The translations under genes and the position numbers were made by a program. From positions 186,001 to 250,000 of the forward strand of contig NW_019029002.1 in the NCBI RefSeq assembly GCF_002105155.1: a DNA stretch of 64,000 bases, given 5' to 3'. The DNA comes from Lobosporangium transversale (Eukaryota). Under the pieces are notes generated by a model that had not been told where the DNA came from, did no database searches, and saw nothing but the letters and a program-made list of their open reading frames with translations. Position 1 is the first letter of the stretch. Every line of letters starts with the position of its first letter. Below, in pieces: positions 27,455-60,543 of this stretch.

Positions 27455-28003
27455 GGCGACTGTTCGATGCTTGTTGGTTTTCCAAATCTGCTTTGATTTC
27501 ACCATAGTTTAGCGGAATTGATTAGCATCCCCTGAATGGCTGCCATCCAAGGGACTAACTTCGAATGGACAGGATTTACTGTGTTGTTCAAAACAATAAA
27601 ACTTGACTGAAAGTCTGCTAATCCTCAAACTATGAGGCAAATAATGCCTCTGAACGCTTCAATAGGATTATGGCGAGTTTTTGGGGTGCAGAAAAGACAA
27701 GATTGTATCTTTTGAGCAATGAAGGATATAGGATTTGTTCCTTGGAGGCAAACTTTTTTGAAACCACGCTTGTTGCTAGTAAAAACACAAATGGTTCCCG
27801 TTTTCCGCATACTTTCAACGCTTCCACAATCCAAGGGCTGTGATGTAGCCATTAAATGTTACATGTTTGTCGAAGTATTGACACATCCCTTGCAAAAGTT
27901 CAGATGTATGCTAAGAATATTGTTTAAGGGACGTAGAGTAGTCAATAGCATGTGGCAGTATTCAGGTGTTTATACAGTATCAGATGGAGTCCGAACAGTC
28001 GCC
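27455..28003. repeat. E1 right long direct repeat (549 bp) with 12-bp TIRs
   Basis: Near-identical to 17530-18079. Confidence 0.95.
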
Positions 28004-29400
28004 AATAGGTTTGTGCTGTATGAGCGACAAGTTTGTGCTCGTTTTCTTCCAACACGTGCTGGAAATCGGAACATCACGCCCTTTCTCTTCAGGCTCAGAT
28101 CTCTAATAATGTCACCTTTCGCCTACCAAAAAGAGAACATGGACCATAATGAAAAAAGCACGATGAACTCAAGTCTTAGTGAACCAGAACAGCCTATTAA
28201 CCTTCCTGGAAACTCAGGTGATGTTAATGAGAACGATGATAATGAGGACGTGGAAATAGTTTCAGGAAGTTCAAGTCACCTATATGAATAACCAGAACAT
28301 TGACCTATGGAACTGTCTTCACAAGAACTGTCTCTAAAGATCTATCTCATTTGCTCAAAGCCAAAAGAGGAGAGGAAAATGCAACAGTAATGACGAATAG
28401 AGTACTGAGCCAAAAAAAAAAAAAAAAAAAAAAAGCTGTGTAGACAGTAACAACCAGTCATCTAAAATGAAGTTTAGTCAAAAAAAATAAAATACTGAAA
28501 TAGCTTCGCAGGGAAACATTTTCTTCAATCTCTTTCTTCCGTTTCCCAGATATAAATAGTTTGAGTAAGCTACCATGTCCTGACACTTAGACATCGAGCA
28601 AAAAGGTATCATTGTTGGGATGCACCTCGCAGGCATGAAGTATGTGGAAATCGCATTGCAATGCGGTGTAGCCCGAACCCCTGCCAATAATGTATCAGGG
28701 TGTATTGAGAAGGAGGTACAGGAACTTTGCTGTATATCCGACTTTCTGGCTCTTCTTAAAGACGCGTCTCCTTTCCTTTGTCTCTGTTCCTGCCCAGAAT
28801 CTTGAAGGGCACCTTGAGGGGTATCTTGGGGAGAGGAGGGCCTTGAGGAGCGGTTTGGGCGCAATTTTGGCCTCGTGAGTTATGGTTACGGTAGTATTTG
28901 TAGGTTTAAAATAAAATACTTGCTTCTGTCATCTAGTTTATTTTCTCAATGTACGTGACATATCCAAACGAAATAATGATCGCGACAATCTTGTTCAAGC
29001 CAAGAGCTGAAGTCCTCTTCGTTCACGTAAAAAACTCGAGGCAGATAGTCATACGGTTCTTTATGGAAGTCGTTTACAATAACATTGATCGTTTCATCAT
29101 CGAGAGTTGACTTAATCCATTTATAACCATGCACCTCCGAGCGCAAAATCTTAGTTGTTATTTCATTGGCCTTCGCAATGATCCTCTCGTCAAGTTCTGA
29201 ACTTTCTGAACCATCCGGCATGAGTGACCTTTCCCTGGTATCAAAATCTGCTGTAGGATGGATATCAATGGCCTCAACGAGAGCTGCAGGTGATTCACGC
29301 TCTATTTCTGAGTCGGAATCTGACATCTCACTCGAATAGTTATTACAGTCAACGTTCCATGAGTCCCAGTCAGAATTTGATTCCTCACCCCATAGTCATG
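28004..29400 (-). pseudogene. Degraded coding remnant, possibly from an older DNA transposon
   Basis: Broken minus-strand ORFs (28946-29326 acidic; 28478-28864) with no intact gene structure; family not identifiable by eye. Confidence 0.25.
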
Positions 29401-40267: not shown

Positions 40268-40948
40268 TTAAACAGTACTGATCCTCAGTGTAGGCAATCT
40301 CTCTTTAAGCATCGCTTTCAACTTTTGAATCTCCTCCAGGTGTTCTGCTCGTGCCAGGCAATGGCTGTAAAGGCCAAACTTCCGCAACGGCAGCATTAGT
40401 TGCTTACTATGTAGCAGATGGTCCACCAGAAGCTTAAACATCTCCAAATTAAAATGCATCAAGGAATCGGACGACGACATATGGAAAGGCATTACCTTTA
40501 GGATAAATAAATATCATAAGCCTTTCCAACATGCAACGTCCTTTCAGCAGTACCGTTTGCTCTCGGATTTCTGTAACACTTTCAATAACTGTGGCGAATT
40601 CACAAGAGCTTGGTGATCCATAGAGAAGCTCCAGCGACCTCAGTGTTCGAACCAGTGGTAGTTTGTCGTCAAATACTCTTTCAAGTAATGTACCAACTAT
40701 GAAGGTTCCGAGTGTAAGCTCTACAAGGTTGGGGCAGCAGACGAGAAGATTACTGAAATGGGACACTGCAGAGGGGTTACTGAAATTAATTCTGATCAAG
40801 TGAAGGCTTCGAAGGTTTGGTGCCATTGCAAAAGTCGAAATGTTGACACGGGAGAAAAGGTTCTCAAAATATCTGAGTTTCATCGATTGGATACGTGCGT
40901 TGCTAATGAGCTGAATAAGTGGATTGAACCGGCGACCGCGATTGATAA
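40268..40948 (-). pseudogene. 3' half of a Mortierellaceae-type LRR/RNI-like gene interrupted by E2
   Basis: INRGRRFNPLIQLISNARIQSM...LRSLHL...CPNLVELTL; continues the frame of 52045-53980 once E2 is removed. Confidence 0.8.
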
Positions 40949-41464
40949 GGCGGACATCCGAACCCGAGAAGTTGCCCAAAATACAAATAAATGTAAGATA
41001 TTCGAAGGTCCAAGCTACATCCGAAGGCTCTCAGAAAGTAAGTTGTTGCCATAACTAATCTTTTAAAATATATTCTGATGAATAGATGCGAGACTCGAGC
41101 AACAAATCTAATTAAAAACATTCTAACTATCACAAAGCTGAAGTCCTTTTGCCCGGTGATTTGATAGGCTGTTTAAAATTTATTTATTAAAGACATTGAC
41201 TACTTATCTGAGGATAGACTTCATGTGAGACACTGATGCGGCTGGTCAACCTATAACCAGACCAACAGACACCACTGCTGCCTTCGGATTATAATGCCAA
41301 ACACCCAATACATATACTACGGGTTCATTAAAACACACTGTTCGGCCTGCAGCCCACTAATATCAAACACTCCCAAATTGGGCATCTCTTTTTTAAAAAG
41401 TGCGATTAAATTCGAACAGGATTTATCTGGGTGGCCAAATCAGTTTCGAGCTCGGATGTCCGCC
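40949..41464. repeat. E2 left long direct repeat (516 bp) with 13-bp TIRs GGCGGACATCCGA...TCGGATGTCCGCC
   Basis: Only one substitution noticed versus 51529-52044. Confidence 0.97.
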
Positions 41465-41557
41465 TTGTGGTATCCCTTCTTTCGTTTTCGGTCCTCATGA
41501 TACCCGAATTCTCATATGATAACACATTCCTACGGAAGAAGGGATAGTTAAACTAGA

Positions 41558-42943
41558 TCAAAACTCGCGTTTGGAGTTCCAGTAGTCATCAATGGCGCGA
41601 GTCTGATTAAAGCTGCTGAGTGGCTCCCATGAATTGTCACATTTATTGTAGCCCTTCCATTGAACAAGATATTCTACTCCATCCCCTTCTCCTCGGTGCT
41701 CTATTATCTTTTTGATTTCATATGCAGTTTCTATATTGCTATCACCCATTTCATGATCGTTGTCAACATTTGAGGTAGTAGTGATACCGAGATTTAAAAA
41801 AGCATCCTGAAGCTGATACATGCTTCGAGCATCTTTGATTTCTACAACATAGCTTGGAGCAGTGGGAATTTGAGAAATGTTTGCCTCAGTGCCATCTGGA
41901 TAGTCGAAGTTCTCTTGCATCCAGAAGCTGTGATGTGGCTCTATAGTTATATTACGTAAGGCAACCATGCGTTTGATATTGAGAAGTAGGCAGCATAGCT
42001 TAAATTGCAGAGAGAAAATACTCTTTTCAGATACCCTCTTCACCACAGTATGACTGAATTTGGTGAAGATGGTCTGCATTTCTCCGAAATAACTTTCAAT
42101 CCTAGAACGAAAACTCCCAACCATTTCGTTATACTTTTTTTCCTGGTCTGTAAATGCTATCCCTCTTGTCTTGCGGACTGGACAGCAGAAGTTTGTTGAT
42201 TCCAGTTGGTCACTGTGTTCAATGATCCCATGTAGGAATTGCGAATAGCCTCCATCCAGGGTAATACAGTCAAGGCGATCGATTTTCTTCTCAATGGCCA
42301 TTTTGGAGAGCATGGTTCCATCACTAAAATCACGGCATTCGGCGGGTTGTGATACAAACACAATCATGCTATTCATATCACAGCATACTTGTGTGCGGAA
42401 CCCAGACTTTTTGAGTTTGTATGAATACAAACTGGCTTTATCTGCATTTAGGTATGCCACTCGACTATCATGGCCATCGATGTGAAGTGTAATATGTTTG
42501 AACTCCTCTGGGTTGATGGATCGTGATGTGAGCAGACGCAAGGTAATACTTGAGGACATGTTAGCAAGACAGGACGTTAACTTTGAATCCAGGGTATGTG
42601 TTTCCCTGCCAAAAAAATCTTTATACACATCATGGAATGAACTCTTGGGTAAAAATACACTCATCTCAGAGGTCGAAACCCCTTTCAATAACATGTACAG
42701 TATTAGGATGCCTTTCTCAACATTTCTGTAAGGGCCAGGATAATTCCTCGTGCCAAAAATCACTGTCAAGAAAAAGAACACTGGAACGATGCCCAGACGG
42801 TGCTGCACAAAGTCTTTGGCCTTCTCTATATTTTCCACACTCTTGATCTCAGTACGGTGGAATTTGCTCCGCTTCAAAATGGGCCAGTCCTGGTGCAGGA
42901 ATCCCCATTGAGTTGATATCAATCTGTCAAACTCTGCATCCAT
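41558..42943 (-). CDS. PIF/Harbinger-type DDE transposase with C-terminal chromodomain
   Basis: LHIDGHD, ITLDGGY, FRSRIESYFGE; YEIKKIIEHR...EYLVQWKGYNKCDNSWEP chromodomain; intact 461 aa. Confidence 0.9.
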   Translation of the reverse strand: MDAEFDRLISTQWGFLHQDWPILKRSKFHRTEIKSVENIEKAKDFVQHRLGIVPVFFFLTVIFGTRNYPGPYRNVEKGILILYMLLKGVSTSEMSVFLPKSSFHDVYKDFFGRETHTLDSKLTSCLANMSSSITLRLLTSRSINPEEFKHITLHIDGHDSRVAYLNADKASLYSYKLKKSGFRTQVCCDMNSMIVFVSQPAECRDFSDGTMLSKMAIEKKIDRLDCITLDGGYSQFLHGIIEHSDQLESTNFCCPVRKTRGIAFTDQEKKYNEMVGSFRSRIESYFGEMQTIFTKFSHTVVKRVSEKSIFSLQFKLCCLLLNIKRMVALRNITIEPHHSFWMQENFDYPDGTEANISQIPTAPSYVVEIKDARSMYQLQDAFLNLGITTTSNVDNDHEMGDSNIETAYEIKKIIEHRGEGDGVEYLVQWKGYNKCDNSWEPLSSFNQTRAIDDYWNSKREF

Positions 42944-43008
42944 TGTATAACATCACTAGCTATTATAGATATATATTCATTTAAAGATTATATTTTGGGA
43001 TTTGCTCT

Positions 43009-43090
43009 GCGGACCAGGGGCCAACTTGCAAGCTCTCTCTTAGAAAAGAATTTGTAAGTTGGCCCCGGATAAACTGGTCGGGTAAATATG
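43009..43090 (+). repeat. E2 hairpin site 1 (orientation A, 'flip' core)
   Basis: GCGGACCA-GGGGCCAACTT-GCAAGCTCTCTCTTAGAAAAGAATTTGT-AAGTTGGCCCC-GGATAAACT...GGGTAAATATG. Confidence 0.95.
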
Positions 43091-43386
43091 TTAAAAAATA
43101 AAAAGATAGCCCTCGGGAGGGAGCAGGCGAGTGGCAGACGAGAGATACGTTATACTCGACTTTTTAATAAAAGCGGAAATAGGCACATTTTTAAATCAAA
43201 ATCTTGTGTTCTTTATTTTTAAAAAGTGCATAACATATAATGCAGTCAGCGCGAGGTCATTGAGTGTTGGTGTTGTAGATGCGAGTGATATATTCGATCA
43301 TCTCCTCCTCAGTCTTCTTTTCCTACCGAAGGTCCTATCCACTAAGCGTGGGGCTGGAGGATTGCAGAATGCTGTGGGCCTTCAGG

Positions 43387-44170
43387 CTAATCGCTTTCTG
43401 GGCTGGGAGCAACAGCAGGAGTGGTGGCAGTGGCTGGACTGGCAGCGGCAGCTGGGCCGTCCCTAGTATAGGTATGGAAAACCTTTGTGATATACCCAAT
43501 CATCTCAGCTTCAGTGTTATTCTCGCTTCGAAGTACAAAGCTACGGTTATTAAGCTTGATCGGGGCATCTTTGTCGCGCCTCATATGCTGAATGACATTA
43601 TCTCCTCTTGGCGACGGATCAAATCGCAACTCCTTAACCTCAATAGCATCAAGCTCAGGGTTGTCGGTAATAAATTGCTTGACTCTACCGTCGATAAGCT
43701 TCCGTTGTTGAGCAAAGATGCGAAATCCTCCAACTGGCAATGGTTGAGGCTTCTGGAACTTTAAAACAACAAAGATCTCCTGGTCTTTAGATGGACGCGG
43801 TAAAACTCGATTCTGGTTGGCTTCTTGGAGTGCGCGCTCGCAGTTGACAAAGGCATCTTTAACGTTCTGCAGTTCGAGCTTAGTCTCAGCGTGGCTAGAT
43901 AACTCCTTATCAAGCTCCGCCTTGGTCCCTTGGCGCGCATACTCACTGTTGGCAAGAGCGAGTTTAGAGTTTTTCAACTCCAGTTCTTTCTCTTCCAAAT
44001 TGGATAGAGCTGTGTCAAGATCCGATTGAGTGGATTCCAGGTCATCCTTGGCATCCATAAGGTCTAGCTGCGTATTTCGGAGTTCAAGTGAGGGCTGCAA
44101 CCTTCTCTTGCAGTCTTTCAATACTGGACTCTTGTGCTGGTCTGGCGGGTCTGGTGGTGGTGGTGGTCAT
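43387..44170 (-). CDS. Coiled-coil + DUF3627-like protein; apparent frameshift near 44090
   Basis: ATG 44170 gives MTTTTTRPARPAQESSIERLQEKVAAL, which shifts into LELRNTQLDL...; homolog of 23058-23621. Confidence 0.65.
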
Positions 44171-44506
44171 AGTTCAAAATTGTTTTTTGGGTGAAGTAAT
44201 TAAGAAAGTTTTGAGTGGCATAATTTCAAAAGGCCACGGTTTAAATTGCAAATTTCGACAGAAATTGGTTGAGCTGGCATAATTTAATTGGTTCAGGTAA
44301 GGAAAATTGGGAAGGAAAAGAGGTGATTTGGCAGAATTCCATTGGACGAATTTTTTTTTTAAAAAAAGAAAAGGAAGGAAAAGGAAGCAAACTCACGTCA
44401 CAGGGTGAAGGATTTTATTTTAATGACTTTAAAAAGCACTATCTCGTTTTGGCGAACCTGAGCCACAGCCGGAAATTTTTTTTTCGGTGCATTTGAACAG
44501 CTTCAT

Positions 44507-44600
44507 GCGCACGGGCCAGGCTTGGCGGTGGCCAACTTACAAATTCTTTTCTAAGAGAGAGCTTGCAAGTTGGCCACCGGCTAAACTACGGGTAAATATG
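44507..44600 (+). repeat. E2 hairpin site 2 (orientation A, 'flop' core)
   Basis: GCGCACGG...CGGTGGCCAACTT-ACAAATTCTTTTCTAAGAGAGAGCTTGC-AAGTTGGCCACCG-GCTAAACTACGGGTAAATATG. Confidence 0.95.
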
Positions 44601-44847
44601 GTGACTGGATCGCACGGCCACCACTACCACCACTTTTTTGCATTTTTAAAAAAAAAAAAAAAAATTTATTACTGAGATGTCGATTGTGTTACCATTCGCC
44701 TCCAGAAATAAATGCTCTTGAAGACCAGCTCAAATTCCATATAAATACACCCAACTTGTGGAGGACCTTTTCTGCTCTATTTAATTCTATTTTCTAAATA
44801 CGACAATTAAAAAGGTGACCAACATTTGCATCATTGCGTGGTGGATT

Positions 44848-45016
44848 GGACGTATCTGGCACGATCTGGACTAATAATTAGCGAAGCCACTTCTTAGCGA
44901 CAGCCGTGGACAGCACGTGACAATCCTGTCGGGGTATGGACATATCTGGCACAATCTGGACTAACAGTTGGCAAGCCACCTTTTAGCGACAGTTGTGGAC
45001 AGCATGCGACAATCCC
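44848..45016. repeat. Imperfect 90-bp tandem duplication upstream of the E2 cargo gene
   Basis: GGAC.TATCTGGCAC.ATCTGGACTAA...AAGCCAC...TTAGCGACAG..GTGGACAGCA.G.GACAATCC starting at 44848 and 44938. Confidence 0.85.
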
Positions 45017-45353
45017 GGGTAGCAAAATTTCTTTCACTACGCCACAAAGAAACAAATGCTGATGTCTGGCAAGAAATTTGCGACCGTAAATTTATAAACA
45101 TTTAAGCTGTCACAATAAAACTCTCATGGAATTTTTTTTGGAAAAATGCATTTGAAGTATGTGGGACCTAATCAATATGTCTTTTTTTGAAATTTTAGAT
45201 ATAACAGTCACAAATGTGACATGATGCTAAAAATAGATGGTTTTTTTTTGAAAAAAGAAAAATTCTCACACTTCTTCTCACACTTCTTCTCACACTTCTA
45301 CAACTTTTCAATCACACACTTTATTCCCAAGTTTTCCTTTCGCCCTGAAAATA

Positions 45354-47208
45354 ATGATTTCAAAAGCAGAATTTCTCCGCAACACCAAGGCAACTGAGCC
45401 CTATCACATTATTGAACCATTCGTACGATTATTTGGAATTAAGGATACAGAAGAATTTTTAAGTGTTATTTCCGCCGCCTTGACGGAGCTCCTTGATGTA
45501 AATTACGACAATAATGACCAGGAACTATATCAACAATGCAAACGCTACGCTCGATGGAAACAAGTTGTTGAGGTATAGAGGCCCGAGATAGTATTAAATA
45601 ATTCATATTTGAACGCCTCTAATGTATGACCAAGCAGACCGTAACACGATCTCTTATTGTTATTTATAGTCAAAGACATTCCGCACGTCTTGTACCAAAT
45701 TTTTCGCTAAGAAGACTGCCGCCGCGACGTCTACCCCTGCTACCACTGCCAACACATTTCGTCGCTCGGACCGAATTAAGGAGATCCAGTCACCAGCAGC
45801 GCCTGTGAAATCCCTAACTGAGGAGGAAATACGGATTGATGGATTATTTTTAAAAAAAGACACGGAAACGATCGGACAAAGGATCAAACAGAGAGCTCTG
45901 GACCTAGAAGCTACTGTAACATCACCTGAGTTCAAAGATGTACACGAGCGCCGGATCTTTTCTCTTGGAGCCTCGTCAATTCTGGATCTAGTAGATATGT
46001 CAAACGAGAGTCAGCTTTTCGATGTATTTCCCAGTAAGAGTGATCAGGATGAGTTAATGACGATGTTTGCTCATCTAAGCATGAAGAGATCCATTAATGC
46101 ACCTGAACCAACTGAGTTGCTGACACATTGGGATATCTGCAGTGCGATTGCTTCTAAAGATGGGCTTGCTGAAGCACGATCCTACCTATATCGAGAGATG
46201 GGAGCCTGTCTGCCGAGCTTTGCGGAGAATCTCAAGCCTCTCCTGATAATGATTGACGCCCTCCTATGTTATCCCAAGATATTTGCACAAGAGTATGACG
46301 TAACGGAGCAGGACTTAATGAATGTTCTTTGGAGCCCGATGCTGTCTTCCTTATTTCTCCGGCAGCAGAGTGAAACTGGGATTAGGATAAAAGGAGGAGA
46401 TTCGACACAGGTAGCGTCAAACATCGAGAAAAGAGAATTCTACGATGACGGACACGCTATTGCCTTCAAAATAGATTCTCGGATCATAATAGATGTTTCC
46501 CGAAAGGGTGAAATCGACATTGCAGCCGTCGAGGTTGCTCCCAATTGCCAAGAGACCAAAATTTTTTCAGATGGGGCCAAAGTCCTCCGAGAGGCGAAGG
46601 AGATAGTAAATGGCTTGACCAAAATTTTTCCGGATGACGAAAACTTTCTCAAGAATACGATTGGTTACGGCGTTCAGATAGGGAATCTGTCTGGGTCGAT
46701 ATTTTCTCTGCATCTAGTTGCTCCGAAGCTATATGTAGCATGGCCAGAACATACATTCTGCCTTCCTGATTCACGAGGATCCTTGGATCGATTCAAGGAA
46801 GTCATTATAGCACTATCTTGGTTTCAACAGGCCGTCCAAGGCACCGCCATGAATATCAAATCAGCTCTTTCAGTGCAGAAAACAGTCGGAGCACTCTATG
46901 GCCACGGCTACAGCCATAAACCACTGGGTCAAAAGCAGTGGACTAACCCAACCTGGTTTGAACCATCAAAACCATCTAAGGCTCGGCCAATCCAGGAATT
47001 AATGAGGGTGGTGCACCCCATTCAGACTGCAATTAGTCCTCAATCAAGCGAAGACCTAAATAAGCAAACCCATGCGAATGCTACATATGACAGTAATGGA
47101 TGGGCCATTGTAGTGGCCAAAGATGGCCGACCAATGTACTTTAACAAGCATACACTGCAGTATCTTGAGGAACGTGGTGGCAAAAAAGCCAAAATGGACG
47201 TAGCTTAA
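45354..47208 (+). CDS. E2 cargo: putative PD-(D/E)XK/REase-fold protein with WW-like C-terminus (intron 45573-45669)
   Basis: Exon 1 splices in frame into ORF 45805-47208; EQDL...LWSPML, FKIDSRII...EIDIAAVEVA...KIFSDGAKVLREAK; tail NGWAIVVAKDGRPMYFNKHT. Confidence 0.6.
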
Positions 47209-48017
47209 TATATCAGGTAATCTATACTCTTGCTTTTCATACATGCATCTGACGTTATTCTACTTGAATTCAGTCTTGTTTTTTTTTTAAAAAAAAAAAA
47301 AAACAAAGGGTATTTTCTCGCTTCGCATTTGTATTTTCTTCTGATATTCAGATAGCATAGTGAGACCTGCACCCAATCTTATGTAGAAGTATTCCTGTTT
47401 TACGAAATAAATCAGCCATTCACAAAGACTTAGCATATCTGGTGTCCTCGAGACTCACGAGGACGAAGTGCGGGGAAGCAGCTGTGGTCGAAAGCCATTG
47501 TCTTTTTTTTAAAAAAAAATGTAACCCGAGACTTTTCGAATTAATGGATGCCTGGGCTCCAACTGCTGGGCCGCTCCCAAAGCTATGTAAGACTCGCTTC
47601 GGCCTCTTCCACTTTTTTTTCAGCCAAGGCTCGCGAGAGCGCATATATCCAATAAGCGGAAGAAATTATTTGACAAGGGTCCCAATCAGTCAGCTCAACT
47701 TTGATATTGGATCCCGGATGTCCAAAATGGCCCACGATAATTCCAATAAAATAACAAGATATTTTCAAAAATCCGGAAGATTACGTCTTTGAAAATGCTG
47801 TGCTGTTGGTCATATTATATTTGCATCAGTTCACAGCCCATAATCACCCCGGATCATACTAGGGTCGACACAGACCCGGGGCAGTTTGTTCAGTTGCAAA
47901 AGGATTAGACTGGGATTATAAATTAAAGTTATTTGTATTAATAATAATAAACTTGGGGATTTCTTTTTTTTTAAAATGCAAAAAAGTGGTGATAGTGGAG
48001 GCCTTGTGATCCAGTCC

Positions 48018-48115
48018 CATATTTAGCCGGCCGAAGGACCTGACAGTTTAGCCGGGGCCAACTTGCAAGCTCTCTCTTAGAAAGAAATTTACAAGTTAGC
48101 CCCTGGTCCGTGCGC
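48018..48115 (-). repeat. E2 hairpin site 3 (orientation B, 'flop' core)
   Basis: AGTTTAGCC-GGGGCCAACTT-GCAAGCTCTCTCTTAG...-AAGTTAGCCCC-TGGTCCGTGCGC. Confidence 0.95.
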
Positions 48116-48192
48116 AGGGAATGATTTCAAAAATTAAATAACTGAATATAAATTTTTTATATGTATATACAACAAGACGCACATTATAAACA

Positions 48193-51100
48193 ATGTACAA
48201 ATTTGGAGCCACATTCTACTCGCAAAAGCAACAGGGCCTTAGGCCACAGGCAGCATCTTTCAAGAGAGCTGATGAGGCTCAGAACACATTTCTTGTTGCT
48301 CATCAATTCAAGCTCAACTCGGAGGGCAAACCGCTTTGGGCATTTGGTAGCTACAAAAATCTGCAGAGCTTCCTGGAATGCACAAAGTATGTACCAGCCA
48401 CTGAATGCTTCTTCTTTGAGCAAATCCGCGATGGGACATCTTGCTGGGAATACTACGACCTGGAATGGGATCCCTCAAAGACAGAGGACACTGAGGAGAC
48501 AATCTTCTCAGATTTTTTGCAGCAAAGGAATGCCTTCTGTCTAGAATATGAGGTCTTAGCTTCTGAGTGCCGCATCTTGAGTGCATCAAATGCTGAAAAA
48601 GGGTCAATGCATATCATCTTATCAGGGTCTGGATTCAAGTTCAGAGACAACACATGCCATATGAAAAACTTTATGGACGCCTTCCATTTGATGGTTAAAG
48701 AACATCCACTTTCAAAACACATTGATTGGATTGTCTACACAAAGAATCGAAACTTCAGATGCATCAATAGTGCTAAGCGCCATGATCCAACAAGGGTTCT
48801 CCGACCTGCAATTTGGCACAATGCCTCCTGCTCTGCACCTGAGAGTGAGTTTTTTGTCACCAATGTGAGTGCTGATGCCACAGATATTGTGCATTGTCAT
48901 CTTGCAGCAAGCAAAGGTGCTAGAAATAAAGTACCTCAAGTACAGGGGTCTGAGCAGGATCAAGACCAAGAGCAAAACGAAAAGTTGCCACCTAGTGTGA
49001 TTAAAGCAATAAATACCATGCTTGCAAATATGGATTGCTTGTCACAGTTCAAGATTGGCGAATCTCATAACAATCGTATGCACCTGAAGCGTATAAGATC
49101 AGGGCACTGTCAAATATGTAATAGGATCCACGACAATGACAATGCATATGTGACAATTGCAGATCAGGGGAAAGTGTACCTCCACTGCTATAGGGTGGAT
49201 GCAAATTCCAGGCGTGATGGACTTCAAATTGGCAAACTGGATTTTCCAAGCATGATCGCACTTCGAGTACATAGGGCACAGACCAATCAAGAAGAAACAA
49301 TCACTGCGAACAAACATTGCTCACTTCGCCATTTGGAGTATAAGAAAGTTATGAAGCTGCTGCAAAACCAGAAACAGAGTCTTGTGATCCGCAGTGAACC
49401 AGACACTGCTAAGACCTCTTTTGTTGAAAGTTTTATGGATAGGCACAAGAACTTAGCATACATTTTTGTGTCTCCTCGACAATCACTAGCACGCAATCTA
49501 GAGAAGCGCCTTGAGCTAAGGAGCTATCTTAGTTTCCCTGGGCCTGTCTCTGGGAAGCGCGTGATCATTCAAGCTGAGTCCTTATATAAGCTTGACCTTG
49601 AATACTATAGCATGGATGTGGTCCTGGTCTTGGATGAGGTCTGCTCTATTTTTGAACAGATGACAAGTGTGGGCACCATGAAAGGCCGCCATGGCGCAAA
49701 CAATCAAGTCCTAGAAGAACTTATGCGCAAGTCCAAGAGGGTAATTGCCTTGGATGCTGATGTGACAGACCGAGAGGCTGAAATCATCAAGTCTGTGAGG
49801 AGCGATGTTTTTGTCATTCACAACACTTTCAAGCCACAGCAAGGGCATCAAGTTGTGTGCTTCCAGCATAAAGAAGTCTTAGAGTCTCATGTTATTGATC
49901 TTGTAAAATCTGGTCATAAGGTCTGGATATCAACCACACACTCAGCTGAAGATGCCGAGACCCTGCATAAGACACTGCAGAAAATGGGCAGAAGGGGTGT
50001 CTGTATCACAAAGAACACATCTGATGCTGATAAGATTGGCATCTCACAAAATATCAACAAAATTGTGCTGGACCTTGACTATTTCATTCACACTCCGACC
50101 ATCACAGTTGGTATAGACTGCAATGTGAAGCATTTCAACTATGTCGTGGGGTTCTTTGAAGCACAAACTGGCGTCATTGTTGAAACATGTAGACAGATGT
50201 TGCGACGACCGCGAAATGTCAGCACTCAAAAATATCTCATCTATATCAAAAATGTAACTAGCAATCTACCCACCACTTTCAGAGAGATTGTTGAGTATAT
50301 GGAAAGCCAGGAAGTGCGACTGAATGGATGTGAATTAGACATAAGTGGATTTCCTTATATATCTCAAATGGGTCAGCCTCCATCCGTTGACTTGAAAGTG
50401 CTATATGCATTAATATACATGCAGACACTCATCAAGAAGCACTTGACAAAGAATGACTTTTATCAACGCTTTATTGACCAAATGGTCCAAGTTGGCTGCA
50501 GTGTACAGGAAGCTGACTCGCATCTGTGTAAAAACGATGAATATACTGTGGAACTAAACCAAAACAAGAAAGAGCTGCTACATATCAAGTACACAGGAAT
50601 TTCGAAAGCTAGGGTCCTTGATACTGAGGAGTTTTCTCGGTTAGATGTACAAAACAGTCGAACACAGGAGGAACAATATGCTGTGACGAAGTATAAGCTA
50701 ATGGAGACCTACAGTGTACAAGATGCATCTCTTTTGACTCCTGATTGGGTTGAGAAATATGACAAACCTCGAGAGAAGAAGATCTATAAGAATCTTGCTA
50801 TGTTGAAAGAGGACCCCACACTTCAAATCTTGCGACAAGAAGATAGATTGGGTCTCAAATGTGGCAAAGCTACAGTTGGGGTTCACACACTGGGAAATTC
50901 GAGATACCTCAGGTTTAAGTATGCAAAAGACATTCTTGACAGCTGTGGATTTGATTCGCCATTTGATGACAGAGAGATGTCAGCTGAGGAGCTCAAGAGA
51001 AAAATAGATCTTCGTTGGTCAGATTTGGTCAAGGACGGAAGTATGAGAGACATCTGCACTCAGCTGGGGATTAGATGCCCCTCACACAACAATTGGGACT

Positions 51101-51249
51101 TCAAAAATAAGAAAAGCTTTTTGAATAGTGTGTTGAACGAGATTTGGGGGATCCACATAGTCAGAACTGATCACAAGTCGCATCATTATTATATCAAGTA
51201 TATGACAGAGGTTGGTAAACACAAAGATGACTTTTTCATGACACAGTAG
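48193..51249 (+). CDS. AEP primase-polymerase + Zn finger + UL9-like SF2 helicase fusion (1018 aa, intronless)
   Basis: EYYDLEW, GSMHII, HIDWIVYTKNRNFRCINSAK; CQICNRIHDNDN...LHCYR; SEPDTAKTS (degenerate Walker A), LVLDEV, HTPTITVGID, RQMLRRPR. Confidence 0.88.
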   Translation: MYKFGATFYSQKQQGLRPQAASFKRADEAQNTFLVAHQFKLNSEGKPLWAFGSYKNLQSFLECTKYVPATECFFFEQIRDGTSCWEYYDLEWDPSKTEDTEETIFSDFLQQRNAFCLEYEVLASECRILSASNAEKGSMHIILSGSGFKFRDNTCHMKNFMDAFHLMVKEHPLSKHIDWIVYTKNRNFRCINSAKRHDPTRVLRPAIWHNASCSAPESEFFVTNVSADATDIVHCHLAASKGARNKVPQVQGSEQDQDQEQNEKLPPSVIKAINTMLANMDCLSQFKIGESHNNRMHLKRIRSGHCQICNRIHDNDNAYVTIADQGKVYLHCYRVDANSRRDGLQIGKLDFPSMIALRVHRAQTNQEETITANKHCSLRHLEYKKVMKLLQNQKQSLVIRSEPDTAKTSFVESFMDRHKNLAYIFVSPRQSLARNLEKRLELRSYLSFPGPVSGKRVIIQAESLYKLDLEYYSMDVVLVLDEVCSIFEQMTSVGTMKGRHGANNQVLEELMRKSKRVIALDADVTDREAEIIKSVRSDVFVIHNTFKPQQGHQVVCFQHKEVLESHVIDLVKSGHKVWISTTHSAEDAETLHKTLQKMGRRGVCITKNTSDADKIGISQNINKIVLDLDYFIHTPTITVGIDCNVKHFNYVVGFFEAQTGVIVETCRQMLRRPRNVSTQKYLIYIKNVTSNLPTTFREIVEYMESQEVRLNGCELDISGFPYISQMGQPPSVDLKVLYALIYMQTLIKKHLTKNDFYQRFIDQMVQVGCSVQEADSHLCKNDEYTVELNQNKKELLHIKYTGISKARVLDTEEFSRLDVQNSRTQEEQYAVTKYKLMETYSVQDASLLTPDWVEKYDKPREKKIYKNLAMLKEDPTLQILRQEDRLGLKCGKATVGVHTLGNSRYLRFKYAKDILDSCGFDSPFDDREMSAEELKRKIDLRWSDLVKDGSMRDICTQLGIRCPSHNNWDFKNKKSFLNSVLNEIWGIHIVRTDHKSHHYYIKYMTEVGKHKDDFFMTQ

Positions 51250-51423
51250 GCTTGTATATAATGATTTTTAAAAAAGTGGCGTCCTTCAGTCAAGATTTAG
51301 AAGATGGATTCAAGTATAGTTCATGTAATATTACCATCTGGGTAACCAATCAGAGCAGGCTAATAGGCTAATAGGCTAATATATTATTTGAGTTACTACT
51401 GAGGACTATATAACCGGGAGTAA

Positions 51424-51494
51424 CATTTAGCCGGGGCCAACTTACAAATTCTTTTCTAAGAGAGAGCTTGCAAGTTGGCCCCTGGTGCGTGCGC
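51424..51494 (-). repeat. E2 hairpin site 4 (orientation B, 'flip' core)
   Basis: CATTTAGCC-GGGGCCAACTT-ACAAATTCTTTTCTAAGAGAGAGCTTGC-AAGTTGGCCCC-TGGTGCGTGCGC, 34 bp before the right direct repeat. Confidence 0.95.
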
Positions 51495-51528
51495 AGGGCT
51501 TGACTCACCCTCCAAAAGAAATTGGGAA

Positions 51529-52044
51529 GGCGGACATCCGAACCCGAGAAGTTGCCCAAAATACAAATAAATGTAAGATATTCGAAGGTCCAAGCTACAT
51601 CCGAAGGCTCTCAGAAAGTAAGTTGTTGCCATAACTAATCTTTTAAAATATATTCTGATGAATAGATGCGAGACTCGAGCAACAAATCTAATTAAAAACA
51701 TTCTAACTATCACAAAGCTGAAGTCCTTTTGCCCGGTGATTTGATAGGCTGTTTAAAATTTATTTATTAAAGACATTGACTACTTATCTGAGGATAGACT
51801 TCATGTGAGACACTGATGCGGCTGGTCAACCTATAACCAGACCAACAGACACCACTGCTGCCTTCGGATTATAATGCCAAACACCCAATACATATACTAC
51901 GGGTTCATTAAAACACACTGTTCGGCCTGCAGCTCACTAATATCAAACACTCCCAAATTGGGCATCTCTTTTTTAAAAAGTGCGATTAAATTCGAACAGG
52001 ATTTATCTGGGTGGCCAAATCAGTTTCGAGCTCGGATGTCCGCC
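51529..52044. repeat. E2 right long direct repeat (516 bp) with 13-bp TIRs
   Basis: Near-identical to 40949-41464; followed by TAA. Confidence 0.97.
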
Positions 52045-53505
52045 TAATGTCAGGTGTTGGTCGTCGAAGATACTCTCCGTCCACGCAGAGGCGGACAAGG
52101 TTTGATGTAGTAGCAGCCGTTGCAAATTCTCAAAAGTCCTCCATTGTTGCGTCCCACCCGAATTTGAAAGTCAACTCCTGGATACCGCGCGCTTGGACCA
52201 TGACTTCATAAAACTCCTTTGCTTGTACTGACGATCTGAGACTAGTGTCGATGCTACCATGCTGCTCATCATATTCGCCGCCGTTAGCTGCAACGATCTC
52301 CTTGAACCGCTATACTACTGATTCCCTGTAGCTCTCTCGATAGTGGTCGAAACATACCCATTTGACATGGCCCTCAAGAGTGACAATGCGATATAGGTTA
52401 CCGAGGGTACGGCTCTGGTTGTGGGCCAGCAAAAACGATTGGAGCCGCCGTAGGTCTGCCCCTTCAAGCACTTCTGATTTCCCGATCATTGCCTGGCCCG
52501 CAATGTTATTAATACCACCATCGGCTTCCTGATGATTGTTTTGGAAGTAATTGATTGATTCATCCACAAGTAATACGATCCCGTGCCCTGACACCTTCAC
52601 TACACCTCTCGCTACATCAATCCAGTCTGAGATGTCGAGTTGAGCCAATGGAGGCAAGACAAAGCCAGCAGCAAGGACTCCGTATTTAAGTATCTGTAGC
52701 ATTGTCAATACATAGGATCCGTACTTCTCAAAGAACTCTGCGGGTCGGTCGATATTATACCCTTCATGCTTTGCCAGATGTATATGGTGCGGGATATTGC
52801 TCTTGGATGGCTTCGTGTGACCGCCACACTTACGCAGGAAGAACAACCGAAACTGGTATGCAAATGGTTTCCCTAGCTTATCAAGGGGTCCTGTAAGCTT
52901 TGGGAGGACGATGAACAGTCTGGGGATTGGGTATTCGTGCAATTCGTAGGTCTGAGTGATGGGAGCTTGCACTCGGCTTTGAATGATGGCTAGCCTGTCC
53001 AGAACCTGTTTCTGCATCTGCAACATCTCACTCTGTTTATTCTGCAAAAGCTGCAGTTCCTCCCTATTCTTCTTTATCTCTTGTTGCATCTGCTGTCGAA
53101 GGGCTTTGATGAGCTCGGTGTCTTCTCGCTGCTGACTAAAATGTACTGCCATGGTTGCTTTGAGCCATAACATCGGTTTGATTCATTTGGATCACCTCCG
53201 TTGATTTAGAGTGAGAGCTGTCGATGCAGTTATTCTGAAAGGATGGCGGTTGGACATTAGTGTCCATAGCACTGGGAAGAAGGGTCAGTTTGGGTCCCTC
53301 CAAAAGCTTGTCTGAGATGGGAAGGTCCCCAATGTGCTTTGACATTGCACTCGTTAGTGCTTCGGCGGAGGATGCTTTTAAGAACGCATGAAAAGGTGAA
53401 AGGGGTACCTCAGAGGTGGCGTTGATACGAGCTGGCGCGCTGACCACGACTTGCAAGGTAGTCCCTGGTCGATATTGGACCCTTAAAGGAACAAGACTAA
53501 AAGGA

Positions 53506-56692: not shown

Positions 56693-57330
56693 ATGTTTCA
56701 GGCCGATAATTACATTTCATTTCATGACCTCAGTCCCGAGGCACGCATCCTTTGGGTGTCACCGTCCATGATGGATGTGCTCGGGTATTCGTCAGAGGAT
56801 GTGGTTGGACGGAATGCATATGATATCATTTATCCGGATGACCACACCCAGGGGCGAGTGGTTCATAAGGAGAATGTGATGAATGACTTTGTGGCCAGTC
56901 AGGTCGTCCTTCGATACAAGGCCAAGGACGGTCGAGCTGTGCCCTGTGTAGCAGTCTTCAGTCTCTGCTATGACTTTATCCTCAATTGTTCCACCCTTGT
57001 CGATCCAAGTGCTGCTGCCTGTGAGTTTTCTTTTTCTTTTCTTTCCCTTTCCCTTTCCCTTTTCTACCTTATCCTCACTCAATCCTCAATCAATCCTCAA
57101 CCAACCCGTAACTGGTTTTTTATTATTATTATTATTATTATTGTTGATTCAGGTCCCTTTGAGGACCGTTTTTATCCAAAGGATATCACTGGTTAAATTT
57201 CTTTTTTTGTTCTAGTCTCCTATTTTCTTTTTTTTTTTTTTTTCTTCTTGACCAATTGGGAGAGGATTGCTTGTCCAAAGGTTGAAGCATTTAACAACAT
57301 AGTATCAGAAAACTCAAACTGACAATGTCC

Positions 57331-57364
<34 letters not shown>

Positions 57365-58963
57365 TTGCAGATAGACACCTTCGAGCGCATTCTTCTGCAA
57401 TGACTCGCCTCGTAGGATCTAGAAAAGCGGTAAGTGAACTAACTTGTTAGCTAAAAAAACATTTATGCACTTTCTTTTTTAAAAAAAGAGTGTAACTCTT
57501 CCCTTCCATTCCTCCATCTATCTGTCTACCAATCTATCCATCCATCCATCCATCGGAGTGTAATAGTGCAATGCATTGCATTGTCCATATTCTGTATACG
57601 ACTGTATACATATCTATATACATATATGTATACATTAATTCAAAATTCAAAATTCAAAATTCACTATTCAGTATTCAGTATTCAATATTCAATATTCAAT
57701 TTGTACAAAAGATTAAATGCTGCATTTGCATAAGGTCTAGAACAGCTCGTATTCCATTGCTATCAATATATGACAACATGAACTTGTGGACTAGACAATT
57801 TTTTTTATTTTTTATTTTTTTATTTTTTTATAAATATATTTTTTTTTCTTTATTTTGTCGATCAATGGATGAATAAAAAAAAAAAAAAAAAAAAAAGACT
57901 AATGACAGCAATTTGCCTTTGATTTTTACTTGATCCGTAGGAATTCGAGCGGATCAAACGTCATCACGAGGCATTTGCAGCCAATTCATGGAATCATCAC
58001 GGATTGGAACCAGAGTTGAGGGTTTGTATGATTATGAACCGGTTCACGCGGAATCTGGTGATCATGTACGCCTCCTCAGCATGTGAATCCATCTTCCATA
58101 TCGATGCAGACTCGATCGTGGGCAAGCCCGTTCTGTTGTTTGTCCGTGCCGATGACCTGGCCCCGTTCGTGGAGCAGATGGACTCTGTCAAGGCCTCGTC
58201 CGCGATCTCCCATATGCGCTTCTGGTTTCAATCTCCTCATTGGCCACGGGAAATTCCATGCGAGGCCATCATGTTTGGGGCTGCAGACGGGATTGTGGCG
58301 ATTATGCGGAGATGTAAACCTTTTTTGAGAAAGCAGTTTATCACGGACAGTTCACATTGTGGGCCATATCATCATCATAATAATAATAACAATAAAAGTT
58401 TGGGATCATCATGGTCTTCCCTTGCCAGTGCTGCAAGGTCACGCCTCTCCACGCCCTCGACCTCCTTCAACTCGACCTCATCTCTAAAATATCCATCCCA
58501 GACAGCAAGTCCAGGGTACTATGCTGCCTCCAGAGCCAGGCTCAATAAGATCCGCATTGTGGATGAGAACGATGGACGGTTAAGGCCCCTGGCCATTCCG
58601 AAGGACGATCCCAATCTTTTGTCAGACACATCTCTCCCTGCAGCGTTCAAGGAGCATCGGGCACAATATGTGGAGGAGGAGGAGGAGGATGATGATTCGA
58701 TCGAGGTAGAGAATGAGGAGGAAGTAGAGAGATTGAGCATAGGTCTAGACGATGGAGAGACCCATATGGATTTCAATCTTGTGCAGGGTACAAAGGAGAT
58801 GGACATTGGAGGTGGCAATAGATTTCATTACCAGCAGCAGCAACAGCAACAACAACAATACTATGACTCTCACCATGATCACGGGAGTGTATACAATTCT
58901 CAGTACTCTAGTCATTCCAATATATTGGATCGTACGCGTAACAATCGTACTTCACAATCATAA
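56693..58963 (+). CDS. Tandem PAS-domain protein, copy 1 (3 exons)
   Basis: YISFHDLSPEARILWVSPSMMDVLGY..EDVVGRNAYDIIYPDD (PAS); second PAS IMYAS...IVGKPVLLFVRADD. Confidence 0.85.
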
Positions 58964-59110
58964 TCCTAATCGAATTTGAATAAAATAAAATAAAATAATA
59001 AAAAAACGTGTCGTATATGTGATATATATATATTATACATGTATAGTTCAAGAAAGAAAAAGAAAAGGCAAGCAATGTTGCTTATGCTGTGTTTGTTTAT
59101 AGCCGGAAAG

Positions 59111-59143
<33 letters not shown>

Positions 59144-60304
59144 ACTACATGTACATGTATATAGTCTATGCCTTTACACACATATACTGTACATGTACAT
59201 GTACAATGTGAAAAAAAAAGACAAAGATTATAATTTATAGAGTGGAATATGTATAAATGTAAACATTCTTTTTTTTTTTTTTTATTTGTTCCTATTAGCA
59301 GACTATCTGCAGAAAAAAAAAAAAAAAAAATGCCATGCACGTTACATGTTACATGTTACAAAACCATAAAAGAGATGTGGATGTTCGGATGGATATAGAC
59401 AAGCGGAAAAAAAGAAAGGGCTCTCGTCTGTCTGTCTGTCTGTCTGTTTTCTTCTGTTTGTTTTGTTTTCATGGGTTTTTGGCTTTTTTACCTCTGCTGT
59501 GGTTTGGACGGATGGATGGAGGGCAGGGATGTCTGCATCTGACTGGAAAAAAGTTGTTATCCATGCATAACAGTTACAGTTACACTTGCAGGGTTATACA
59601 GTTACACTTGTAGCGTTATTCATGTACATGTATACATATGTACAGTACAGTTACACTCGCACTCTACCCCTGCAACTCATGTGTCCATTATAAAGACATG
59701 GGACGGACATGGTTTATTGTTCATTCATGCATCTATTCCACTGGTAAAAAGCCAAACCAAAAAGCCGGGAACTTGCATGTTTGTGTACAGCAAAACATTG
59801 TTCGCTTGTTCCTTCCCGTCATCTTTTTTTTTTTTTTTTTTTTTTTTTTTTCACTTTGCCCAGGCTTCGACCCCCTCTTCCCCTTCTCCTTCCCCTTCCC
59901 CTCCCCCTTGACATCCTTTGGCTCCAGACCAAAAGAAGGGGGGCAAGAAACAACTTGACCTTGACATGTTCTTTTTTGTTTGTTTAAAAACATATTACCA
60001 ATCTTATCCGGGATGCTGTGTTGTCCACTCATTCCCTATCACCCTATCATTGATACTTTTTCTGTTTTTTCAACTTCAATCTTTGGTGCTTAATCTTTAG
60101 CATGGCATCGTTGCCCTACCCAATCAACGTTCACCTGTCTTTAACAAAACCCGCTCCTGAGGGTTTTTTTGTCATGGGTAAATTCAAAAAAATATTTCTT
60201 CTCTCTCTCTTTCTCTCTTTTTGCGTCTCTTACAACACACAAACACTTACTTCTTTCATTTCATTTTATCACTCTCTCTTTTCATATCTCTCCTCACCAT
60301 TTGC

Positions 60305-60340
<36 letters not shown>

Positions 60341-60543
60341 CTACAACACAACACAACTCAATACAACACTACACTACACTGCACTGCACTACACTATCTA
60401 TACCATACTATACTATACTACACTTCACTACAACTGCACTACATCATAAACACACACACGTTTATACCACTCTTAATCGAATATATACAAATATATATAC
60501 ATATAAAAATACACATACAACATATACATATTCACATAGAGCC

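Follow-up and report, generated by a model that had tools for sequence, protein, structure and literature searches.

Transposons of the PIF/Harbinger family typically have short inverted ends that start with GGC, are flanked by a 3-bp TAA/TTA duplication and encode, beside the transposase, a second open reading frame with a Myb/SANT domain. This report concerns E2, a composite transposon of about 11 kb in a 64,000-nucleotide stretch of the fungus Lobosporangium transversale (contig NW_019029002.1, positions 186,001 to 250,000; hereafter the window), and E1, a distant relative in the same window. Both encode a DDE_Tnp_4 transposase and have short GGC-starting inverted ends, and E2 has a TAA duplication; unlike PIF/Harbinger elements, they have composite ends and additional replication genes, and no Myb/SANT partner was matched in their 78 frames of at least 70 amino acids (aa), a search that may overlook genes that are spliced or diverged. 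PIF/Harbinger transposons have been recorded in Mucorales (PMC9963178).

The layout of the two elements recalls that of KolobokP as given in its published account: an interior containing a DDE transposase lies between terminal direct repeats of 450-660 bp with inverted ends of their own (11-18 bp), circle and multimer routes are proposed, and the regeneration of the terminal repeats is left open (PMC9587614). E1 and E2 likewise have an internal DDE transposase and terminal direct repeats, of ~520-550 bp across the two, each with short inverted ends. KolobokP has a Kolobok transposase, a TTAA-type duplication and a His-Me nuclease, and is found in animals (PMC9587614), whereas E1 and E2 reside in a fungus and have a Harbinger-type transposase with a chromodomain, a TAA duplication (E2), a primase-helicase, a DUF3627-like gene and four internal palindromes. 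No His-Me finger nuclease matched among the E1 and E2 frames.

The palindromes invite comparison with viral origins and telomeres. The oriS of herpes simplex virus 1 (HSV-1), a target of UL9, consists of inverted boxes around an A+T-rich spacer (PMC13483431). The sites described here are similarly imperfect palindromes of ~50-56 bp with GC-rich inverted boxes and an AT-rich centre, in an element encoding a UL9-family helicase; the arm sequences are, however, unrelated to those of oriS, the helicase is fused to a PrimPol-type primase, and the four sites lie inside a transposon that encodes neither a viral polymerase nor a capsid. Poxvirus flip/flop sequences, by the available description, are terminal, lie inside inverted repeats, form symmetric concatemer junctions cut by the A22 resolvase and are scrambled among progeny (PMC8956199). 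The likeness to them is an imperfect palindrome in two reverse-complement forms; terminal location, long inverted repeats, symmetric junctions, an A22 resolvase and scrambled isomers were not seen at the E1 and E2 sites. The rolling-hairpin replicon of parvoviruses uses an HUH Rep/NS1 nickase with a superfamily 3 (SF3) helicase, whereas the helicase here is of the SF2 UL9 type, and no HUH enzyme matched in the 78 frames. Finally, the N15-like linear plasmid phages VHML, VP58.5 and vB_VpaM_MAR have a RepA-type primase-helicase replication protein that is homologous in its helicase region; Rep of such phages starts at an internal origin. They also encode a protelomerase for their hairpin ends, and none was found in E1 or E2.

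We favour, with moderate confidence, the reading that the four palindromes are oriS-like origins for the element's own primase-helicase, and that the two forms of their core are fixed micro-inversions produced by template switching rather than isomers of hairpin ends. The core flip by itself is probably an ordinary palindrome micro-inversion and a minor feature; the novelty lies in the element.

Eight palindromic sites and the two forms of their core

The sites in E2 (s1 to s4) and E1 (A to D) are listed with the other features in Table 1. Their order, > > < <, is kept in both elements, and in both, one site lies 24-31 bp interior to the right terminal repeat.

Table 1. Features of E2 and E1, in window coordinates
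Feature	Position	Strand	Description
E2	40949-52044		composite transposon, ~11 kb
E2 left target-site duplication	40946..40948	+	TAA; identical TAA 3' of right repeat, 52045-52047
E2 left long terminal direct repeat	40949..41464	+	516 bp; own 13-bp terminal inverted repeat
E2 transposase	41558..42943	-	Harbinger-type DDE transposase with C-terminal chromodomain; 461 aa, intact frame
E2 site 1 (s1)	43010..43073	+	11-bp perfect arms; core 43028-43055, form F
E2 DUF3627-like gene	43387..44058	-	with coiled coil; 223 aa; homologue of E1 23058-23621
E2 site 2 (s2)	44506..44585	+	13-bp perfect arms; core 44539-44566, form R
E2 cargo gene X, 3' exon	45805..47208	+	about 585 aa whole; Mucoromycota family
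E2 site 3 (s3)	48047..48119	-	one arm mismatch; core 48065-48092, form R, 24/28
E2 primase-helicase	48193..51249	+	PrimPol-type primase fused to UL9-like SF2 helicase; 1018 aa, intact frame
E2 site 4 (s4)	51426..51498	-	core 51444-51471, form F; 31 bp from right terminal repeat
E2 right long terminal direct repeat	51529..52044	+	followed by TAA
E1	17530..28003		second family member; E2's parts in different order
E1 terminal repeats	17530-18079 and 27455-28003		13 differences; 12-bp inverted ends
E1 transposase	18212-19600		
E1 site A	19651-19699	+	form R
E1 primase-helicase	about 19771-22915		frameshifted
E1 DUF3627-like gene	23058-23621		54% identical to E2 copy
E1 site B	23981-24029	+	form R
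E1 Crinkler-like cargo gene	24424-27244		broken
E1 site C	24961-25008	-	form R
E1 site D	27364-27412	-	form R

The sequence-only reading of this DNA had held that sites 1 and 4 of E2 share one core, that sites 2 and 3 have its reverse complement, slightly varied in site 3, and that all four E1 sites are in one isomer. The comparison bears this out: s1 and s4 agree at 28/28 positions (form F), s2 is their exact reverse complement over 28/28 (form R), s3 departs from R at four positions, and the E1 cores are 25-26/27 identical to one another. Because different motifs lie on the two sides at all eight sites, GCGCACGGACCA-like upstream (truncated at s1) and CGGCTAAA-like downstream, the orientation of the sites by their flanks holds. 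The E1 cores align better with s2 (20-21 of 28-29 columns) than with form F (16-17), and R is therefore likely to be the older form and F a derived one. A single R-to-F flip, common to s1 and s4, is enough to explain all eight sites.

The sites are specific to the elements. The two 11-bp arm words, with at most one mismatch, occur in the 64 kb only at the eight sites and at one isolated single arm. Perfect arms extend over 5-13 bp; on folding against 200 shuffles, seven of the eight sites reach z -3.1 to -5.2, and s3 only z -1.5. Complementarity beyond the arms (43-54 of 180 positions) is at background and the flanks are asymmetric; s1 and s4 match each other in inverted orientation at 62/64 positions. 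Over about 50 bp the arms are 36-45% AT and the cores 64-74% AT, an enrichment that is modest in E2 against the 58% of that element overall. The arms are uniform within each element, whereas E1 and E2 differ from one another in both arms. The flanks are mosaic: s1, s2 and s3 have a downstream side in common, s3 and s4 an upstream side, and s1 and s4 a core. An origin of the sites as independent insertions of miniature inverted-repeat transposable elements (MITEs) was considered and rejected, as flanks are common to the sites and no copies lie outside the elements.

The left arm of s2 contains an insertion of ~10 bases that resembles the reverse complement of that site's own right flank in 8 of 11 columns; in a post hoc test, 33 of 20000 random E2 11-mers scored as well. 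The insertion lengthens the perfect arm to 13 bp and includes a base found only in the right arm of s2. It is likely to be the scar expected of template switching. The downstream flank of s1 contains an inverted copy, 5-6 bases long, with which the upstream motif is able to pair (window 43012-43080); this may be another fold-back scar or a product of chance. A 7-mer, GGCGACT, is common to the E1 terminal inverted repeat (17530-17536) and the E1 palindrome arm; E2 has no such identity.

Contigs from three sequencing runs with the same species label (X1, X2 and X4) show one isomer per site. Those of all three runs bridge s3 with 0 differences; at s1, s2 and s4 they enter the core by 13-21 bases, matching the window exactly (2-3 runs per displayed side), and break inside it. 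No strand-change joints at the sites occur among the contig records listed for these runs, a listing that 94 further records fall outside, although contigs hide rare forms, and the window sequence has no fold-back duplications at the sites. In a related copy from a further organism (run X5, organism B), which is ~97% identical over the helicase, s3 has the same orientation and homology of the helicase module ends at the outer edge of s3 (48047). In the related element of the same organism the transposase, the region of site 1 and the DUF3627-like gene's end still adjoin one another (window 42457-43324), with a 16-base gap across the site's left arm. Two other runs (X6 and X7) share next to no sequence words with the window, which makes no statement on absence.

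Candidate origins and the competing accounts of the core forms

Searched against the PDB, the profile of the primase-helicase family matched UL9 with E 5e-52, in its middle, helicase part only, and PrimPol with E 5.5e-21 at the N-terminus; the E2 protein itself matches Pfam Herpes_ori_bp (E 6e-14). Because GC-rich arms around an AT-richer core occur together with a UL9-type helicase that has its own primase, and because the arms are uniform and element-specific, as expected of cognate binding sites, we read the palindromes as likely origins. The helicase would bind the arms and melt the core, and the primase would start synthesis there. Where an inverted repeat of 11-13 bp is melted and primed time after time, strand switches would be favoured, and since the arms are symmetric, both core forms would be tolerated. 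One R-to-F flip would then have spread to the outer pair, s1 and s4, and s2 would either have kept R or have regained it by a second flip, in the same event as its arm extension. The second possibility, in which the scar arose with a flip (two events in all), would explain why s2 matches s1 and s4 perfectly and s3 less well.

There are precedents for such events. Spacer inversion with arm extension, a reversible outcome of intermolecular template switching, is described in yeast where the arms exceed 9 bp (PMC8604942); the E2 sites resemble these cases in arm length, in a flip that occurs in place and in the occasional extension of an arm, and differ in that their spacers are non-coding, 28 bp long and part of a repeated site. 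Circoviruses, too, are described as undergoing template switching at their origin palindrome (PMC2690592). The mosaic flanks, the different gene orders of E1 and E2 and the break in homology at s3 in organism B suggest that the sites are in addition points at which modules are shuffled.

More speculatively, recombination between the terminal repeats would give a circle that is amplified from the sites, and the transposase would cut unit copies from a multimer, regenerating two near-identical terminal repeats. The fullest version of this idea is a self-synthesising composite transposon of Mortierellaceae, released from the chromosome as a circle or as hairpin-capped linear DNA, copied by its PrimPol-UL9 enzyme from four palindromic origins with isomerising cores, and re-inserted by a Harbinger-type transposase that regenerates direct repeats like long terminal repeats (LTRs) without reverse transcription. 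As a whole, we hold that version to be doubtful.

A number of observations weigh against the reading of the sites as origins with fixed inversions. The origin-binding domain of UL9 is unmatched in the comparison of the family profile with the PDB, the C-terminal third of the protein is without a match, and binding and initiation by the helicase at the sites are steps that we infer. The published yeast inversions concern spacers of 2-5 bp in coding DNA (PMC8604942), far shorter than those of E2. Frequent isomerisation, too, would leave the E2 sites split two and two between the forms and s2 matching s1 and s4 at 28/28, and the test of the s2 insertion was made post hoc and rests on eight matches. 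True bridging by contigs is limited to s3, minority forms are lost from contigs, and the window itself may derive from X1 and X2. Short-read libraries, moreover, lose covalently closed ends. Lastly, the interior of E2 has no excess depth of the kind an amplified circle would give (102-122 in X2, flanks 85-105), contig depth not being a copy number.

Among the alternatives, one that we regard as unlikely treats the sites as crossover points of site-specific or homology-driven recombination that shuffles modules, the flips resulting from exchange of arms within a site or from opposite-register exchange between sites. Such a process fits the different gene orders of E1 and E2, in which each module is bounded by sites, the mosaic flanks, the homogenisation of the sites within each element and the end of helicase-module homology at 48047 in organism B. 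It fits less well with the 78 frames, which include no tyrosine or serine recombinase, with the contigs, which show no inverted junctions, and with the cores themselves, because a recombinase core normally sets direction and here both orientations occur. Recombination at the sites is compatible with the origin model and does not exclude it.

The sequence-only reading had proposed that the element may pass through hairpin-ended linear intermediates, and had named micro-inversion as the simpler alternative. Its observation on the cores stands, and the simpler alternative is the better supported. The hairpin-end proposal is weak, and we judge it improbable. Under that proposal, cruciforms would be cut by a nuclease of the element or host, and re-copying would scramble the cores as in poxvirus flip/flop telomeres. 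It would account for exact reverse-complement forms within one element, the inverted s1/s4 match could bound a linear unit, and the tally of six R to two F agrees with random isomers (p 0.29; for the four alike in E1, p 0.125). Its nearest annotated phage relatives of the helicase are replication proteins encoded by three Vibrio phages, VP585, MAR and VHML (E 2e-13 to 6e-11). These belong to protelomerase-carrying phages, and a putative protelomerase lies ~1 kb from the helicase homologue in MAR; the similarity to these proteins covers the helicase region only, at about 24-27% identity (about 24% over 445 aa). Two candidate nucleases can be named, gene X with its nuclease-like fold and the DUF3627-like protein with its T5orf172-cluster neighbours, although gene X is cargo and absent from E1. 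Hairpin intermediates also predict termini or symmetric junctions, an enzyme that nicks or resolves them, and isomers that are scrambled, yet the sites are internal, their perfect arms are short and their flanks are unrelated and asymmetric. None of the 78 frames matches an HUH, protelomerase, RuvC-type or other resolvase family (Pfam, E <= 0.01), all long E2 frames are otherwise assigned, and the MAR protelomerase found nothing in the window by tblastn at E <= 1, although MAR Rep matches both helicases. The single form per site in the contigs of three runs, with no strand-change joints listed, and the template-switch-type scar at s2 point in the same direction.

There is only a slight chance that the palindromes are operator or promoter-control sites, bound by the DUF3627-like protein, the transposase or the helicase, with no role in replication and with the flip a neutral accident. 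The upstream sides of s1, s2 and s3 do face the starts of the transposase (at 67 bp), DUF3627-like and helicase genes; but s4 and E1 site D look onto a terminal repeat and site A onto the end of a gene, and site C lies in an apparent intron. Nor would this account for an AT-richer 28-bp core conserved between E1 and E2, and an encoded helicase of the origin-binding type needs a loading site. Misassembly at a repeat of 46 bp present in three copies, which the contig breaks in s1, s2 and s4 might suggest, can largely be set aside, because uniquely flanked contigs reach diagnostic core bases in the window's form on each displayed side and s3 is bridged.

E2 joins a cut-and-paste-type transposase to an initiator like those of large DNA viruses, candidate origins and LTR-like ends. 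Such a combination suggests that a eukaryotic DDE transposon may follow a replicative route that involves no protein-primed polymerase, HUH enzyme or reverse transcriptase. Being young, intact and cargo-bearing, with a 96% identical helicase in another genus, E2 offers a small testable system for the regeneration of terminal direct repeats in DNA transposons, the point left open in the account of KolobokP (PMC9587614), and for finding which DNA is recognised by the large, uncharacterised primase-UL9 family.

Encoded proteins and the age of the family

The primase-UL9 family comprises 1037 clusters at E <= 1e-30. The E2 helicase (window 48193-50360) is 96% identical over 722 aa to protein P0144 of Gamsiella multidivaricata, a member of a different genus, which is a hint of recent horizontal transfer. 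The Walker A motif of the E2 helicase (about 49396-49416) reads EPDTAKT instead of GxGKT, as it does in P0002, and may be a working form of the subfamily. Among metagenome contigs, one locus of 1180 bp encodes a partial helicase, and no site was seen by eye in its 399 upstream bases. A viral contig collection yielded no relative of the helicase, transposase or DUF3627-like gene and no match to the merged site pattern, and the one match to the E2 arm pattern in genome contigs, in a bacterium, is about what chance would give (estimate 0.6).

The E2 transposase matches DDE_Tnp_4 (E 4.8e-8) and Chromo (E 5.8e-11) in Pfam, and acidic residues are present in its IDG, LDGGY and IES motifs. It is 50% identical to that of E1, and a tree built with 20 of the 120 listed homologues places the two in separate, well-supported clades with several genera in each. 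The association of this kind of transposase with a helicase, a DUF3627-like gene and four > > < < sites therefore looks old, and not the result of a single capture, although no more than two complete copies have been seen. E1 and E2 are two distant members of an apparently undescribed, possibly self-replicating family of composite transposons; no such element type is described in the literature searched, a search that had Repbase, most subscription papers and supplements outside it.

The DUF3627-like gene matched ESM Atlas structures named DUF3627 with TM 0.79 and 0.74 (feature score 0.87), which we treat as a lead; the model is poor (pLDDT 45) and the best Z in a fold search was 5.3. Some structural neighbours of the domain lie in clusters that carry T5orf172. 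Gene X, which is identical to a protein recorded from L. transversale, has a predicted restriction-endonuclease-like fold, with structural matches to DrdV (Z 8.8) and BpuSI (Z 8.5); the top rows in that search were mitoribosomal proteins (Z 11), and Foldseek gave no match at E <= 0.001.

Insertion sites and minor features

E2 is young and intact, its terminal repeats differing at 1 position in 516 bp. Their contig depth in X2 is ~2x that of the interior, which suggests that only two close repeat copies exist. Two other accounts of the repeats were rejected: they are not long target duplications, since they have inverted ends of their own and an outer TAA, nor two separately inserted MITEs, since each is without a duplication of its own. 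A host frame stays open (27 + 166 codons) when the empty site is reconstructed; E2 splits a decayed minus-strand gene resembling those with leucine-rich repeats (window 40449-40948 and 52045-53173). E1 lacks a matching duplication, its outer flanks being TAC (17527-17529) and AAT (28004-28006), perhaps through later rearrangement or recombination between two insertions. Site C (24951-25022) lies within the apparent first intron of the Crinkler-like gene, and exon 1 of that gene would be reversed if the segment from site B to site C were inverted.

At window 44726-45787, E2 contains an 80-bp direct repeat (44847-44926 / 44937-45015). Diverged copies of this repeat and of gene X's start exist elsewhere in the genome, seen as ~2x depth and skip joints, which suggests a further related element or cargo copy. 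The window is fungal, and all close named homologues are from Mortierellaceae. Outside the elements, duplicated PAS-domain genes (56710-62591) are 68-83% identical in nucleotide sequence, and an inverted repeat of 77-103 bp lies among them at 61478-61738.

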